From Escherichia phage slur14, in sequence record NC_028448.1: DNA of 64,000 nucleotides; one strand, given 5' to 3'. The stretch's first letter is position 1. Each line of letters begins with the position of its first letter. Positions 16,811 to 23,027 of this stretch are shown here, in pieces. The notes under the pieces are model-generated. The model was not told the origin of the DNA. It searched no databases and saw only the letters and a program-made list of their open reading frames with translations. A program made the position numbers and the translations under genes.

Positions 16811-17080
16811 TTATTTAAAACGAATAGTTGAATCCTTAAAGAACAGCCCAGAACATACTGTTCCTTCTACTTTCTGCCCAGTAGGTCCAATAGCACGAAA
16901 TCCAGTATGTTGGAAATCATTTTCAGAACAACCAAACCAATTATATCCAGTGATTTCAATATTAGTAAAACCACTTGAAGATAAAACTTTGGTTGCATTA
17001 TCAGCATCAGTACATCCTGCTAAAGACACTGCTAATACTAATGCCGCGATAGAACGATTAATATATTTCATAATTTTCAC
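16811..17080 (-). CDS. Predicted lipoprotein (89 aa)
   Basis: Signal peptide with a LAGC lipobox. Confidence 0.55.
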   Translation of the reverse strand: MKIMKYINRSIAALVLAVSLAGCTDADNATKVLSSSGFTNIEITGYNWFGCSENDFQHTGFRAIGPTGQKVEGTVCSGLFFKDSTIRFK

Positions 17081-17448
17081 TCAAATTTAATGGCTTGAAG
17101 AAGACTAATAATTCTCAAGCGACTTCTTTCATCTTTAACTGTAAAAGAAAGGGGGTCACCAGATTTCATAGTAATGGTACATTCAAAATCAAAATCTTCG
17201 GAAACTTCTTTGAAGAAGTCAAATTCTTCATCATAAATTAGAACATTACTCTGACAACTATGAAGAATTTTTCCATCATTTCCAGATGCTGTACTAATCA
17301 TTGTAACATTATGACCTTTCATATCTTCAACGATAAATTCACTAGTCAATATTACAGCATTAATAGAACTATTCCTATTACTAGCAGAAAGTAGATATTT
17401 CTGTTCTTCACCTTCACGAATGCGATATTTCTTACCAATTTTAAACAT
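17077..17448 (-). CDS. Hypothetical protein (123 aa)
   Basis: ORF with overlapping stop/start. Confidence 0.5.
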   Translation of the reverse strand: MFKIGKKYRIREGEEQKYLLSASNRNSSINAVILTSEFIVEDMKGHNVTMISTASGNDGKILHSCQSNVLIYDEEFDFFKEVSEDFDFECTITMKSGDPLSFTVKDERSRLRIISLLQAIKFE

Positions 17449-17450
17449 AA

Positions 17451-17627
17451 TTACCCTTTAAGTAAGTCGTAAAAACCACCATTCACATGCTTAGGAGCAG
17501 AAGGCCGACGAGTAGACAAACGATGACATTTAGGGCAAACATCATTTTCTCGTTCAGAAATCTTTTTAATTTTTTCATATTCATGCCCGCAATCTTCGGA
17601 TTGGCATTTATAATCATACATTGGCAT
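17451..17627 (-). CDS. Small zinc-ribbon protein (about 58 aa, two CxxC pairs)
   Basis: Hand translation MPMYDYKCQSEDCGHEYEKI...CPKCHRL; below the track size cutoff. Confidence 0.5.
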   Translation of the reverse strand: MPMYDYKCQSEDCGHEYEKIKKISERENDVCPKCHRLSTRRPSAPKHVNGGFYDLLKG

Positions 17628-17629
17628 AA

Positions 17630-18049
17630 TTATTCCTTAAAGTGTGCTTTCAACATCTGATACAAGGACCATGCCTGTTCATTATTTTCAATAGTAACTT
17701 TCATGACTGGGAATTTTGTGAAATCTTCTATTTGTTCTTGCTCTTCCTGCTCTTGTTCTTCAGCTGCCTGATATGGATTTTCCACTTCATCAAAGAACCC
17801 AGCTTCGTTAGTAGAAAGCCAGATAAAGTTTTCGTCAAGGATATCACCATGTGTTGCATATCCAACTGTGCCAGTAGATGTCACAATTTTAGTAGGACGA
17901 CCAAGATGGTCAACATCTAAAATTTTAAAAGGATGCATACCTAAGCGGCGTGCATAGATTCCGTTATCAGTATGGTCTTTAATAAAAGCTTCTTGAGCTT
18001 GTTTATTTTTAAATTGATACCATTTATTAACTTCAAATTTAATAGCCAT
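17630..18049 (-). CDS. Hypothetical protein (139 aa) with an acidic [10 protein letters not shown] tract
   Basis: ORF in the 39-to-motB interval. Confidence 0.55.
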
Positions 18050-18264
18050 TAATAAATTTCCTTCCAGTAAGTTGTACCGTCTTCAGTGATTTCACGGAAT
18101 ACACCATAAATCGGTTGTTTATCACCAACCTTTTCATACACATAAACCGAAGTCAAGTGAGTAAACTTGATGGTGTGTTCCTTTTGAACTACTACCAAAT
18201 TTGGATCGAATAATACATCTTCAAATTCGTCATTAGTGCAGTTCTGAACAATTTTACGTTTCAT
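18049..18264 (-). CDS. Hypothetical protein (71 aa)
   Basis: ORF with ATGA-type overlap. Confidence 0.5.
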
Positions 18265-18277
18265 TACAATTTCCTCA

Positions 18278-18559
18278 TTAATTGAACAGTGGAGCGATGC
18301 GTTTCAGAAGAGTAGCAGCACCTTTGGCGAATTTTACATCATGAAAAACAGTTTCTTCTTCCGTTACAACACGAGCTTTAATGTTTTCACAATCCCAATT
18401 TTTACGAACAATCTTCAAAAGCTGCAGTAAATCTTTACATTCAGCAATATCGATAACACATCCACGAGAATCTTCCATTATCGCACGATAACCATAAGCC
18501 ATACCATAATCGTTGAAAGATTGCTCGATGATAATTAAGTTTTCCATTTTATTCTCCAA
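18278..18559 (-). CDS. Hypothetical protein (93 aa)
   Basis: ORF downstream of an early promoter-like element (18586..18620). Confidence 0.5.
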   Translation of the reverse strand: MENKMENLIIIEQSFNDYGMAYGYRAIMEDSRGCVIDIAECKDLLQLLKIVRKNWDCENIKARVVTEEETVFHDVKFAKGAATLLKRIAPLFN

Positions 18560-18644
18560 GTTGTTTTCTGTATCAGTAGTTGATATTGATATAGTACCAT
18601 AATCAACTACTGATGTATATAGTTTTATGAAAAAATTTTAAACT

Positions 18645-19136
18645 TTATGCATAACGAGCTTTGCTATAGTGTTTAATCCAGCTTTCAGGAATGACTTTGT
18701 ATGTTCCTAAAAATACCGTGTTGTACAACTTAACACCGTCTTCTACCCATTGATCGGTAATGTATGCACACATAGCGCGAGTACGGTTAACAACACCTTC
18801 CTCACCTTCAGTAAATTCAAACTCATAAGGAGCAACGAACTTGATAGCTTGACCGAGTTTCCACTTAAAGTCTACACCTACATGCGAAGTATCAATCGTT
18901 TCAATTCCTTTAGCGGGAACAGCTTTCAAAAACGCAGGCTCAAGAAATTTCCATCGAACATAACCAAACTGAGGTTTAGACATTCCATCTTTAGGAATGA
19001 TACGCACTTTTACTTCAGAATCTTCATCTTTAACACCATGTTTAAGCTGAATGCTTACGACTTCAACCAATTTTCCTGCTGCTTTAGAACGGGATTTATC
19101 AGATACACGAGCAATTTCACCGATATTAATATTCAT
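18645..19136 (-). CDS. motB: MotB-like protein
   Basis: 163 aa, about the T4 MotB length and position (between 39 and dexA). Confidence 0.7.
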   Translation of the reverse strand: MNINIGEIARVSDKSRSKAAGKLVEVVSIQLKHGVKDEDSEVKVRIIPKDGMSKPQFGYVRWKFLEPAFLKAVPAKGIETIDTSHVGVDFKWKLGQAIKFVAPYEFEFTEGEEGVVNRTRAMCAYITDQWVEDGVKLYNTVFLGTYKVIPESWIKHYSKARYA

Positions 19137-19209
19137 AATTATCTCTCACTTGTTAAAAAGATTTTATACTCCGCAGGACCATTATACTCTGGTCCCAAGA
19201 GTTTGTAAA

Positions 19210-19713
19210 CTAGCTTACACGAACATTAATCACTGCGCTGCGAGGAACTACAGAGTACTCTCCAGCATGAACTACATTAAGAAGTTCAACGCCATCTTCA
19301 ATCCACTGGTCAGTTACCCAACCGCCGACCGGATTCGCGAATGGACGACGAATGTAAACTGCCTTACACAACAAATCAGTCGGGTCTTCAATTTTTTCAA
19401 CTGGTGCCACATACATAGAAACTAAATCCATATCAATATGGGATTTTTCCTGTTCTTCTTTTTCAATTTCTGTCAATAGACTAAAATCTTTTTCATAAAT
19501 AATAAGCGATGACACCATTCCATAATAGTTTCTAATTTCAATATACATCATGCCGATAAGAATTCCGCTATTAACACTAATAACAGTAAAAGGATATCCG
19601 CCAGTTAAAGCAAGAAGTTCACAAAACTTATTATGAGCTGTATTAGACAGTACCGGAAAATTCTTAATTTCATCAAATTTTTTCAATTGATAAACAGCAT
19701 TATTTTTAATCAT
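19210..19713 (-). CDS. Hypothetical protein (167 aa) with a MotB-like C-terminal domain
   Basis: C-terminus VTDQWIEDGVELLNVVHAGEYSVVP resembles MotB ITDQWVEDGVKLYNTVFLGTYKVIP. Confidence 0.55.
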   Translation of the reverse strand: MIKNNAVYQLKKFDEIKNFPVLSNTAHNKFCELLALTGGYPFTVISVNSGILIGMMYIEIRNYYGMVSSLIIYEKDFSLLTEIEKEEQEKSHIDMDLVSMYVAPVEKIEDPTDLLCKAVYIRRPFANPVGGWVTDQWIEDGVELLNVVHAGEYSVVPRSAVINVRVS

Positions 19714-19723
19714 AATTTTCTCT

Positions 19724-20227
19724 TTAATCTAAGGTAATAAAGCCTTTTAGTTCGGCATGTGACTTGCGGAACATTACTTGATGCCCGCCAACGATAACTT
19801 GGTCATCTGGTACTTCGTATACAGCAAGATAAAATCCTTTCGAAGCTAATTCTTCACGCTCTTCTCGTGTGAACCATCTCATCATATCATATTCGCTAGC
19901 GAAAGCAAAATGATAAAGAGCTATAAACCATCCTGGAATATAGTGATCTACGCCTACATATTCTTCTTTCTCAAAATTAGTATTAATTGCTATATTAGCA
20001 TTTTTAACTAATAATTTGTCTTCATGCGGCACAGGAATTCTTTTATTATCATTACTATGATGCATAAAATTGGGTCTGTCATAACCTACGCGTAATAACC
20101 ACTCTTCACTCCATGAATCTATTATACTCCTGTACGGAGTTATTTGAACACAAAGATCTCGACGTATTGTTATAGCATCTTCATAATTAAGAATACTAAA
20201 TGATGATTCAACACGATAAATTTTCAT
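19724..20227 (-). CDS. Hypothetical protein (167 aa)
   Basis: ORF downstream of the early promoter at about 20255..20283. Confidence 0.55.
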   Translation of the reverse strand: MKIYRVESSFSILNYEDAITIRRDLCVQITPYRSIIDSWSEEWLLRVGYDRPNFMHHSNDNKRIPVPHEDKLLVKNANIAINTNFEKEEYVGVDHYIPGWFIALYHFAFASEYDMMRWFTREEREELASKGFYLAVYEVPDDQVIVGGHQVMFRKSHAELKGFITLD

Positions 20228-20254
20228 TTTATTATCCTCAGTAGCTATGGTGTT

Positions 20255-20283
20255 ATAATACCATAACTAACCGAGGAAGTAAA
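20255..20283 (-). promoter_or_regulatory. Early promoter (TTTACT-N17-TATTAT)
   Basis: GTTTACTTCCTCGGTTAGTTATGGTATTAT on the minus strand. Confidence 0.6.
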
Positions 20284-20290
20284 CAACTTT

Positions 20291-20974
20291 TTATCGTTTA
20301 ATTGGAAGAGATAGAGGATCGCATTCTTCCTCTGACGGAGCATCTTCAAGACCCATAGCGTATCGCAAAGCATACTTCATCATCAGAATGTCTTTCGCAC
20401 AGTCATGAATAGAATCATGTGCAACGAATCCATCTAAAGTTCCTTTTGGAAGAGGACACGTGGTCATATCACGAACAAGCAGAAGTGCTTCAATTCTGGT
20501 ACGAATATCACGCTGATTCCAGAATTTACAAGGTTCTAACTTAAATGTATCAAGCTCATTCTCGGAAACGCCGTTAAGACGTTGAATATCGCGAATGAGA
20601 TCGACTAAAATTGGAAAATCAAACGACATTCCACGGCACCAACCTTGAGATTTCCAAGGATCGATGTTATGTGCATTGATGTAATCATTAAATTTTGCAA
20701 TACCATCGATAGTGCTTACATCTTCATCGGATGGTGCAATATTTTTTCGAGCTTCAGGAGATTGATTCTTCCACCATTCGATAGTACTTTTAGTAAAAAG
20801 ACGATGTCCTTTTTGGCTTTTTAAATCAAATTTGATTTTAATGCCACGTGAAACTAATTCATCAAATGTTTCAACCACTTCTGGATTAGGGTCAAAAGCA
20901 ATTACAGCTAAATCAATAACCGCTGCTTTTTCACCACTTCCCATTGTTTCAAAATCTATAATAAAATCAAACAT
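20291..20974 (-). CDS. dexA: Exonuclease A DexA
   Basis: 227 aa, the T4 dexA length; DnaQ-like exonuclease N-terminus (DFETMG). Confidence 0.9.
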   Translation of the reverse strand: MFDFIIDFETMGSGEKAAVIDLAVIAFDPNPEVVETFDELVSRGIKIKFDLKSQKGHRLFTKSTIEWWKNQSPEARKNIAPSDEDVSTIDGIAKFNDYINAHNIDPWKSQGWCRGMSFDFPILVDLIRDIQRLNGVSENELDTFKLEPCKFWNQRDIRTRIEALLLVRDMTTCPLPKGTLDGFVAHDSIHDCAKDILMMKYALRYAMGLEDAPSEEECDPLSLPIKR

Positions 20975-21231
20975 TAAATTTTCCTCGCTAAATCACGAAT
21001 TTGACCTACAGTATAGTCTTGAATATAAACTTTATTGATAGGCTCATCAATAAATTTTGCCATAGATTCAATGTCTTTTTGTATTTCTTCAAGACTGTAT
21101 ACTATCTTTAAAGCTTTTTCGCGAATAGTAATATTTTCAGGACCCTGATTTTCTTTAATGACAGCTTTAACATTTGCCATAAGAGATTTAAATTGGTACC
21201 AACTTAATTCAATCATTAATAATCGCCTCAT
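20974..21231 (-). CDS. Hypothetical protein (85 aa), paralogue of the next ORF
   Basis: Shares LEEIQKD/LEEIERD and DY.(V/L)G(Q/E)I motifs with 21209..21469. Confidence 0.5.
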   Translation of the reverse strand: MRRLLMIELSWYQFKSLMANVKAVIKENQGPENITIREKALKIVYSLEEIQKDIESMAKFIDEPINKVYIQDYTVGQIRDLARKI

Positions 21232-21469
21232 AAAGATAGCTAATTTCGCCTAAAACATAATCATTAATTGTAACAGTTTTCACTTCACCGCAAAAGAATT
21301 CTAACGCAATTAAATCTCGTTCAATTTCTTCTAATTGAAGCATCAACTTACTAGATTCAATTTTTACAGTTTCACGATTTTTACCATGAGCAATTTCATA
21401 AATTTCGCTCACTTTATCTTGAAGCAGATAAAACTGGTCTTTAGTTATTTCCACGAATAGCTTCCTCAA
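21209..21469 (-). CDS. Hypothetical protein (86 aa), paralogue of the previous ORF
   Basis: See previous entry. Confidence 0.5.
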   Translation of the reverse strand: MRKLFVEITKDQFYLLQDKVSEIYEIAHGKNRETVKIESSKLMLQLEEIERDLIALEFFCGEVKTVTINDYVLGEISYLYEAIIND

Positions 21470-21701
21470 ATTTAATTAGTAATTTACAGACACTTTCATC
21501 TAGTGTAATTACCGTATCTGTATTACTGTGATATGATTGTTTTTCAATTCGTTTAATTGCTAATATAGTATCACTTATAAGATAAAGCTTATGAAGGAGC
21601 TCAGCTCCTGTTACCATAACATTAAGATTATCTTGCTTATTAGTATGCTTCCTTATACCATCTATTAGACGATTTAAATATTTTGAATTGATGTTAATCA
21701 T
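21441..21701 (-). CDS. Hypothetical protein (86 aa)
   Basis: ORF immediately downstream of dda. Confidence 0.5.
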   Translation of the reverse strand: MININSKYLNRLIDGIRKHTNKQDNLNVMVTGAELLHKLYLISDTILAIKRIEKQSYHSNTDTVITLDESVCKLLIKFEEAIRGNN

Positions 21702-21707
21702 ATAGCC

Positions 21708-23027
21708 TCACACATAAAACACATCATAACGACCACGGGTGACACCAACATAAAGAAGCTGCTGAGCTAGTTCAGCATCTGCATAATGAATACAAGGCGT
21801 ATAAATGAAAGCACGGTCTACAGACATACCCTGAGCTTTATGGAATGTTGATGCAGGAAGTGCTTTCACTTTACTAAACTGTGATTTAGCATCCCAAAAA
21901 TCACTCCACGGAGCTTTTCCGCCTTTGTTCCAATTTTTATAAGTTTCTGCCGTTTTACCTAAAAATAGGTTAAACTTATATAGCTCTTCATCAGATGAAA
22001 TTATTTTAATCTTTTCACGATAATATTCATCATCGCCGTAAGTTTCTACTGTTAAATCCCAATGACGAATTAAGTATTCTCCAGGAACACCACGAGCTTT
22101 AACAAATGTTGATGTATACTCTGCTTCTATAATACGAACTAATTGTCCGTTATTAAAAATAATTTCTGACACAGGCTTTCCATCAATTTTATATGTTTTA
22201 ATTAATGGTTCCTGCATTACAATAATTTCACCGACAATAAAATCTTTATCAGTTTCAAAAATCTTTTTACGAATAATGCTATTTAACTTATCAACAGATT
22301 TATTCGTAAATGCCATTACGCGATTTTCAAACAAATCATCTAAAGATTTGACGATTGAAAAATAATTTACCATAAAATCGCGTAAAGCGGTATCACCAGT
22401 AAATCCACGTACTCCATGCCCGTCAACAACTTTATCATAAATCCACTTACCATTACGAACGTCAGTAGCTACATCAATAATAGGAGCATTACTGCGTTTA
22501 ACTTCAGTGAGTTCACACTGATAAAAATCTTTATGTGTAAAGAACGGACTGATATAAGCAGTGTTTTCTCCTGGGTCAACAGGTCTAATTTGCTTATTAT
22601 CGCCTATTCCAATTATAGTACACCAAGGTGGGATAGTTGAAAGCAGAATTTTAAATAGCTTTCTATCATACATTGACACTTCGTCGCAGATTAATACCCT
22701 GCATTTAGCTAAATCTGGTACTTCCTTCTGCTCAAAAAGAACATTTTCTTCATATGTTACTGGGTTAATTTTAAGAATACTATGAATAGTACTCGCTTCT
22801 TTCCCTGATAGTTTTGAAAGAATCTTTTTAGCCGCATGCGTAGGAGCTGCTAAAATAATACCAGTTTCACCCGTAGATATTAAAGCTTCAATGATGAACT
22901 TAGTAAGAGTAGTCTTACCAGTACCAGCAGGTCCATTAATAGTTACATGATGTTTCTTTTCTTTAATAGCCCTCATAACGATGTTAAAGGCATTTTTCTG
23001 GCCTTCTGTCAAATCATCAAATGTCAT
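21708..23027 (-). CDS. dda: DNA helicase Dda
   Basis: 439 aa; SF1 helicase Walker A (GPAGTGKT); T4 Dda length. Confidence 0.95.
   Translation of the reverse strand: MTFDDLTEGQKNAFNIVMRAIKEKKHHVTINGPAGTGKTTLTKFIIEALISTGETGIILAAPTHAAKKILSKLSGKEASTIHSILKINPVTYEENVLFEQKEVPDLAKCRVLICDEVSMYDRKLFKILLSTIPPWCTIIGIGDNKQIRPVDPGENTAYISPFFTHKDFYQCELTEVKRSNAPIIDVATDVRNGKWIYDKVVDGHGVRGFTGDTALRDFMVNYFSIVKSLDDLFENRVMAFTNKSVDKLNSIIRKKIFETDKDFIVGEIIVMQEPLIKTYKIDGKPVSEIIFNNGQLVRIIEAEYTSTFVKARGVPGEYLIRHWDLTVETYGDDEYYREKIKIISSDEELYKFNLFLGKTAETYKNWNKGGKAPWSDFWDAKSQFSKVKALPASTFHKAQGMSVDRAFIYTPCIHYADAELAQQLLYVGVTRGRYDVFYV

Follow-up and report, generated by a model that had tools for sequence, protein, structure and literature searches.

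motB and motB.1 of a T4-like phage: neighbouring genes whose products share a C-terminal barrel on different N-terminal domains

Gene order around motB

The stretch of DNA analysed here (hereafter the window; 64,000 nucleotides) is, on sequence identity, that of a Tequatrovirus. Its positions 18200–20300 are 100% identical to Escherichia phage slur03 (LN881728 / NC_042129, Tequatrovirus) and 95–99% identical to many further T4-like phages. Every gene in the motB part of the window is carried on the minus strand:

17077..17448, minus strand: goF-like gene, 123 aa
between the goF-like gene and goF, minus strand: Zn-ribbon ORF
17630..18049, minus strand: goF
18049..18264, minus strand: cef
18278..18559, minus strand: 93-aa ORF (phrog_3720), between cef and motB
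18645..19136, minus strand: motB, 163 aa
19181..19209, minus strand: promoter-like site of the T4 early type for motB (TTTACA-17-TATAAT, 11/12; consensus match only)
19210..19713, minus strand: motB.1, 167 aa, intact long form
19724..20227, minus strand: motB.2
20291..20974, minus strand: dexA
20974..21701, minus strand: three small ORFs between dexA and dda
21708..23027, minus strand: dda

Comparison with T4 motB and its neighbours, as proposed in a preliminary description of this DNA, returned the same genes in the same order, cef – (93-aa ORF) – motB – motB.1 – motB.2 – dexA – dda. At the site of the 93-aa ORF, T4 has a 170-bp gap. The promoter-like site for motB starts directly after the motB.1 stop codon (consensus scan) and a GAGAG Shine-Dalgarno sequence precedes the motB ATG, while motB.1 follows motB.2 after 10 nt with a Shine-Dalgarno sequence of its own (both consensus matches only). 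Just 3' of the motB stop codon, at 18572..18614, lies a 20-nt inverted repeat with a 3-nt loop. An Rfam scan of positions 17000–21000 gave nothing above noise, and two plus-strand ORFs (18750..19208 and 19051..19425), antisense to conserved genes, were treated as not real.

Several neighbouring genes drew our attention in their own right. The goF-like ORF, a second GoF-like gene, falls into phrog_622, the PHROG that also holds goF; it further matches the MotB.1 profile phrog_2333 (7e-4) and an HMM of the MotB.1 N-terminal domain (NTD; 8e-3), so that within 2.7 kb the window has three genes with LSm-like NTDs. At this position T4 carries the short 39.1/39.2 ORFs only. The three tandem ORFs between dexA and dda (85–86 aa each) all match phrog_5263 and are paralogue-like; the T4 annotation lists two genes only (dexA.1 and dexA.2) in this place, and the label ‘dextranase’ that the middle ORF carries in RefSeq probably arose when the gene name dexA.2 was wrongly expanded. 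Finally, an 89-aa ORF at 16811..17080 (minus strand, phrog_902) has a signal-peptide-like start and a lipobox-like LAGC, and may encode a phage lipoprotein.

Domain architecture of MotB and MotB.1

The ORF at 18645..19136 is MotB, going by its sequence an early DNA-binding protein that remodels H-NS on DNA. It matches the Pfam motB family (PF17613) over its full length (321.6 bits, 1.1e-96, profile positions 1–162) and phrog_1671 over residues 1–163 (3.7e-76), is 86% identical to the T4-type MotB P0126, and belongs to the MotB orthologue group by this profile together with its synteny with T4 motB. The T4 protein binds DNA tightly and non-specifically, whether modified or not, co-purifies with H-NS and StpA, alters the H-NS footprint, gives a two-fold burst-size benefit and, when over-expressed, is toxic and de-represses H-NS-controlled host genes (PMC6070864; PMC7827196). 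Co-purification with H-NS required DNA, and the association may therefore be indirect. DNA binding, H-NS/StpA co-purification and over-expression toxicity are thus properties of the T4 protein, presumed for the window protein from the high identity of the two. Its neighbour, MotB.1, matches phrog_2333 over residues 1–166 (5.2e-82) and, like T4 motB.1, is encoded immediately upstream of motB, which places it in the MotB.1 orthologue group; it is 69% identical to the intact 143-aa MotB.1 of T4 (P0019) and 65% identical to the truncated reference form (P0026; see below).

The preliminary description held that the ORF at 19210..19713 ends in a sequence resembling the MotB C terminus, with unlike N-terminal parts and diverged DNA. 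Both peptides that it quoted are present, and formal pairwise alignment found the resemblance significant: BLASTP aligns the two proteins with 41.2 bits (16/31 identical, 22/31 positive, E=9e-10), and the local Smith-Waterman score is 98 against 29.1 +/- 4.6 (maximum 56) for 2000 shuffles (z=14.8). No similarity is seen between the N-terminal parts (MotB 1–87 against MotB.1 1–109), which score 20 against 24.5 +/- 4.3 (z=-1.1) and do indeed differ. As for the DNA, about half of the positions coding for the conserved core of the C-terminal domain (CTD) are identical between motB and motB.1, and there is no DNA repeat between the two genes, only short chance matches; the nucleotide sequences are diverged, as had been stated.

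Profile searches extend the similarity well beyond the BLASTP alignment. PF17613 (motB, ‘Modifier of transcription’; gathering cutoff 25 bits) reaches 33.3 bits on MotB.1 residues 122–161, using only its positions 114–153, while phrog_1671 matches MotB.1 residues 92–163 (3.7e-15) and the CTD HMM of each family recovers the other paralogue (43.6 and 38.1 bits). An alignment of the CTDs of both families covers the whole barrel rather than 25–31 residues. A first hhalign run had also aligned the N-domains; we rejected this alignment, as the MotB.1 family alignment used for it included Klebsiella-phage hybrids with a MotB-like NTD and the shuffle test on the window pair gave no NTD similarity. Both CTD HMMs, run against a six-frame translation of the 64-kb window, found no CTD copies beyond MotB and MotB.1.

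The domains of the two proteins are as follows, with coordinates in the window:

18936..19136, minus strand: MotB NTD (residues 1–67), small beta-barrel of KOW-like type, basic, conserved loop VS..SRSKAAGK
18876..18935, minus strand: MotB interdomain linker (residues 68–87), pLDDT <50 for residues 70–83
18648..18875, minus strand: MotB CTD (residues 88–163), five-stranded barrel with a long first hairpin
18666..18776, minus strand: MotB conserved CTD core (residues 121–157), AMCAYITDQWVEDGVKLYNTVFLGTYKVIPESWIKHY, where the BLASTP and HMM cross-matches fall
19462..19713, minus strand: MotB.1 NTD (residues 1–84), acidic, LSm-like / SH3-like fold of the GoF/MotB.1/Frd.2 family
19390..19458, minus strand: MotB.1 linker segment (residues 86–108, 23 residues), EEQEKSHIDMDLVSMYVAPVEKI, pLDDT <50
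19213..19386, minus strand: MotB.1 CTD (residues 110–167), five-stranded barrel homologous to the MotB CTD
19225..19335, minus strand: MotB.1 conserved CTD core (residues 127–163), NPVGGWVTDQWIEDGVELLNVVHAGEYSVVPRSAVIN

Structure prediction of both proteins, likewise suggested at the outset, gave C-terminal five-stranded barrels with the same order of secondary structures. The AF2 model of MotB (mean pLDDT 82) consists of a barrel at residues 1–67 (five strands, pLDDT 80–92), a disordered stretch at 70–83 and five strands between 97 and 157 (97–110, 115–132, 135–142, 145–150 and 154–157; pLDDT 80–94). That of MotB.1 (mean pLDDT 77) has an N-domain at 1–84 (strands 7–10, 42–49, 55–61, 67–73 and 80–83; helix 24–37), a low-confidence region at 87–107 and five strands between 118 and 165 (118–121, 129–139, 142–149, 152–157 and 161–165; pLDDT 85–93). 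In both CTD models the strands simply meander, and a helix of three residues precedes the last of them. According to these models and the family alignments, what the two proteins share is the C-terminal barrel in its entirety, with five strands and 58–76 residues in the window proteins, which corresponds to the C-terminal half of PF17613.

At the sequence level the barrel follows the pattern D-[FP]-x-x-x-L-[CG]-x-x-h-x-h-x-x-P..F, then a hairpin, then [YFW][IV][TS]DQW[VI]E.G..L.N.V..G.[FY].V. The first hairpin is 12–14 residues longer in MotB than in MotB.1 and in MotB carries Lys and Arg residues (KWKLGQAIKF, NRTR). Twelve residues are invariant across both families (L, F, D, Q, W, E, G, L, N, V, G, V), and include the acidic residues (D, E, D/E) around the Trp in TDQW.EDG. 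The core is the most conserved part in each family, with a mean pairwise identity of 0.74 against 0.58 for the NTD in MotB, and of 0.85 against 0.49 for the N-terminal domains in MotB.1. It is also acidic, with a pI of 5.5 in MotB and 4.2 in MotB.1, the whole of MotB.1 having a pI of 4.95 and a net charge of -7, while the MotB NTD is basic (pI 9.6, net charge +4). In the MotB family alignment this NTD has an invariant Ser/Arg/Lys loop, its invariant residues being G6, V11, S12, S15, S17 and G21, whereas the linker is the most variable region, with large indels.

The window MotB has no match to Pfam KOW (PF00467; gathering cutoff 22.3 bits) at E<=1, but two distant MotB orthologues, P0243 (24.8 bits) and P0252 (22.9 bits), pass the cutoff; the MotB NTD is thus best called a divergent KOW-derived barrel, and not a scored member of the family. 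These two KOW scores are direct sequence evidence that the MotB NTD derives from a KOW domain. [quoted passage not shown]

Among solved structures, the best Foldseek analogues of both models are tandem Tudor domains (53BP1, UHRF1), Spt5 KOW6-7, NusG and eIF5A; with E values of 1.5e-3 to 5e-2 these matches are weak, and the likeness of the two CTD models lies in their order of strands. With the profiles of both families, sequence searches of the PDB turned up no relative of known structure. Taken together, the AF2 models and Foldseek matches suggest that both proteins consist of two SH3-like small barrels on a flexible linker. A different fold has been published for the MotB CTD: by HHpred, MotB residues 69–149 were assigned to the cold-shock OB-fold DNA-binding family, with the eIF5A C-domain as the closest member (PMC7827196). 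That fold (SCOPe b.40.4.5) is a Greek-key barrel of five strands in which strands 3 and 4 are usually separated by a helix. The CTD models, compared by their order of secondary structures, are meanders with a helix only before the last strand, and eIF5A stands at rank 13 among the Foldseek matches. We therefore favour an SH3/Tudor/KOW-like barrel over the OB-fold for the predicted CTD, but do not consider the comparison decisive.

The linker segment of the window MotB.1 deserves mention. In family alignments, T4-type MotB.1 proteins (143–145 aa) have a single Pro in place of its 23 residues. It contains the motif I-D-M-D-L-V-S-M-Y, which in relatives lies either 16–20 aa or about 104–109 aa upstream of DPTDLL (188–190 in forms with two LSm domains). 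This variable spacing between motif and CTD, with one or more LSm-like domains in between, suggests that in some lineages an LSm domain was inserted between the motif and the barrel. The motif is also present in the KOW-type relatives P0234, P0237 and P0240.

Distribution, history and published forms of the family

Searches with MotB and MotB.1 yielded a set of 225 homologous proteins. Of the 103 among these that have a MotB-type CTD, 99 join it to a KOW-like NTD; the remaining four are 101 to 143 aa long, and three of the four are obvious fragments. The MotB.1-type CTD is joined to one to three LSm-like domains, but also, in six to seven Klebsiella-phage proteins, to a MotB-like (KOW-like) NTD. 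P0233, P0234 and P0237 mix signatures of both CTD types. A CTD-only profile run against 1.84 billion representative proteins recovered only 35 clusters at E<=1e-3. Two candidates with long multi-stretch matches (P0242, P0251) turned out to be repeat proteins that match through summed short stretches, and four others (P0244, P0246, P0248, P0250) were rejected for showing the same pattern.

The true distant members, P0243, P0252, P0253 and P0247, have a canonical KOW-like N-terminus, with P0253 at 15.1 bits lying below the Pfam KOW cutoff. The genes for P0243 (contig L005, 461..892) and P0253 (contig L006, 620..1027) lie on metagenomic T4-like contigs that keep the order motB – cef – goF/FRD2, and there is no motB.1 in the recovered stretch of either contig. 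The L006 gene at the goF position matches Pfam FRD2, and one of the two contigs runs dexA – 55-aa ORF – motB. Both distant members whose contigs were inspected thus sit on syntenic T4-like fragments, and the CTD family appears, on present sequences, to be confined to T4-like phages.

That KOW-like distant members occur in contigs with motB only makes KOW plus CTD the older architecture. MotB.1 arose, within a subset of the Tevenvirinae, by duplication of the CTD-coding part and its fusion to a different N-domain, and shuffling of N-domains and CTDs has happened more than once. The preliminary description had read the pair as the outcome of an old duplication, in which one C-terminal module sits on unlike N-terminal domains; CTD-restricted similarity, intermediate and hybrid sequences and motB-only contigs all bear this out. 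Overall, motB and motB.1 each encode two small beta-barrels on a flexible linker and are paralogous only in the C-terminal barrel.

These conclusions are correct but not new. A shared CTD, different NTDs and a probable duplication were described for T4 MotB and MotB.1 in 2021 (Patterson-West et al., Viruses 2021;13:84; PMC7827196, section 3.2 and Discussion), where MotB forms ‘Category 1’ and MotB.1-type CTDs on other N-termini form ‘Categories 2-4’. A 2025 study assigned the MotB.1 NTD, along with GoF and Frd.2, to an LSm-like fold family and saw no laboratory phenotype on deletion of T4 motB.1 (PMC12152347). The finding itself therefore adds nothing to the literature on either point.

The published T4 sequence of MotB.1 calls for caution, however. 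In the T4 reference (AF158101.6 / NC_000866.4; locus L002, AF158101.6, 1719..2151, minus strand) MotB.1 is a protein of 119 aa and 13.8 kDa (UniProt P39415) that ends ...WVTDQWIGRWR, with the remainder of the CTD in another frame as a 29-aa ORF. Eleven other T4 records, as well as RB55 and RB59, have an uninterrupted 143-aa MotB.1, and in a DNA alignment the difference is a single extra G in the T4 reference (GGATTGGAAGATGG vs GGATTGAAGATGG). Owing to this one base, the shared domain of the T4 reference protein is short of its final two and a half strands. The 2025 study reports a MotB.1 of 13.8 kDa, with NC_000866.4 as the source of its amber-mutant clones (PMC12152347); its expression constructs thus appear to encode the truncated form. 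We found no mention of the length discrepancy of T4 motB.1 in PMC7827196 or PMC12152347. The RB69 reference motB.1 (locus L007, NC_004928, 3877..4373, minus strand) is broken up in a similar way, its CTD-coding part running through three reading frames, and RB69p012, the ‘Category 3’ 29-aa peptide of PMC7827196, is the out-of-frame tail of this gene and no separate mini-protein. Tests of the shared domain, and any re-examination of negative MotB.1 results, need the 143-aa or the 167-aa form.

Function of the shared barrel and likeness to known systems

Charge and conservation suggest a division of labour between the two barrels. As the MotB NTD is basic and the CTD core is acidic and the most conserved part, the shared CTD is more likely to be a protein–protein interface, the N-domains contacting nucleic acid; we give this assignment about an even chance. 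The KOW loop VS..SRSKAAGK would then contact DNA, and the LSm-like barrel possibly RNA, while through the CTD the proteins would self- or hetero-associate, or would reach one partner in common, H-NS/StpA being an example. MotB.1 might in this way bring a different cargo to MotB's partner, or modulate MotB assemblies. The preliminary description's suggestion of a common binding partner, with different effector or regulatory parts, is plausible, and what speaks for it is indirect: the high conservation of the CTD core and its neutral to acidic character. Paralogy, architecture, history and mechanism taken as a whole, we think this account somewhat more probable than its being wrong. In a bolder form, which seems improbable to us, the CTD and the upstream I/V-D-x-D-h-x-S-x-Y motif would make up a portable adaptor carried on nucleic-acid barrels (KOW for DNA, one to three LSm-like domains for RNA), which either are delivered to one host target, for instance H-NS/StpA filaments, or lead MotB and MotB.1 to co-assemble. 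Were that so, MotB.1 would by analogy be a paralogue-type modulator of MotB, as truncated H-NS paralogues are for H-NS.

The roles of the barrels could also be reversed, the shared CTD itself binding nucleic acid, whether as an OB-fold or an SH3-like barrel, and the different N-domains recruiting different partners. Small SH3-like barrels with an exposed Trp, of the Sso7d type, can bind DNA. The HHpred assignment described above would agree with such a role, as would the presence of the eIF5A chain 8put_F among the Foldseek matches (rank 13) and the ‘transcriptional regulator’ label on some MotB.1-type proteins, a transferred annotation; the authors of the 2021 study considered that either MotB domain could bind DNA (PMC7827196). 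The basic residues on the MotB CTD hairpin might be read in the same sense, but they sit in a segment that MotB.1 lacks, whereas the part that the two proteins share is acidic both in its core and in several invariant residues (D, E, D/E), and the entire MotB.1 has its net charge of -7. With a predicted meander topology and top structural matches of the Tudor/KOW type rather than OB folds, a nucleic-acid-binding CTD seems to us rather unlikely, though worth keeping in mind.

It is quite doubtful that the CTD is a mere folding or scaffold unit, copied along and serving no shared partner, so that the two proteins act in unrelated pathways, MotB through the nucleoid and MotB.1, in the way proposed for GoF, through RNA. 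The MotB.1 NTD is a member of the GoF/Frd.2 family, for which a link to mRNA metabolism has been described (PMC12152347); this would suit separate roles, as would the separate promoter-like sites for motB and motB.1 and the single knock-outs of the two genes, which differ in phenotype or have none. Yet no N-domain comes close to the core in conservation, both paralogues keep the same invariant residues of surface type (D, Q, W, E, G, N), and the CTD is kept on at least three different N-terminal architectures, all of which points to a specific conserved interaction. As to whether the resemblance of MotB and MotB.1 might be chance or convergence on a short motif, for which the 31-residue span of the BLASTP alignment could be cited, the score against shuffles (z=14.8), reciprocal HMM matches of 38–44 bits, a Pfam match above the gathering score, alignment over the whole barrel, intermediate sequences, the adjacency of the genes and a common order of secondary structures leave it a negligible probability.

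Comparison with known systems places the window pair closest to the T4 pair of PMC7827196: the two genes, their order and the conclusion are the same, with MotB 86% and MotB.1 65–69% identical. The window MotB.1, in contrast, has 167 aa and a 23-residue linker segment that is lacking in T4, and the published comparison used the 119-aa frameshifted T4 form. For the N-domain the nearest system is the GoF / MotB.1 / Frd.2 family, in which the window MotB.1 NTD is orthologous to the T4 MotB.1 NTD (residues 1–82) and shares the bent five-stranded sheet, the window holding goF and a goF-like gene as well; that study covers the NTD only, describes the CTDs as ‘various structures’ and did not use the full MotB.1 CTD (PMC12152347).

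Likeness to other proteins is one of architecture. Tandem Tudor domains (53BP1, UHRF1), like both models, consist of two SH3-like barrels (Foldseek probability 0.99–1.0, E 1.5e-3 to 1e-2), but at 10–15% identity this is an analogy of fold only; the high rmsd stems from the undefined relative position of the two barrels. In the KOW tandems of NusG/Spt5, and in eIF5A/EF-P with a KOW-like SH3 barrel plus an OB barrel, a second small barrel comes after the N-terminal KOW barrel, as in MotB; they have no sequence similarity to the MotB CTD, and MotB is a non-specific DNA binder that is not known to bind the ribosome or RNA polymerase. With regard to function, known phage antagonists of H-NS include T7 gp5.5 and T4 Arn. 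MotB is akin to them as an early phage protein that alters H-NS–DNA complexes and, when over-expressed, relieves H-NS repression (PMC7827196); it has no relationship to them in sequence or fold, and differs in that it binds DNA itself.
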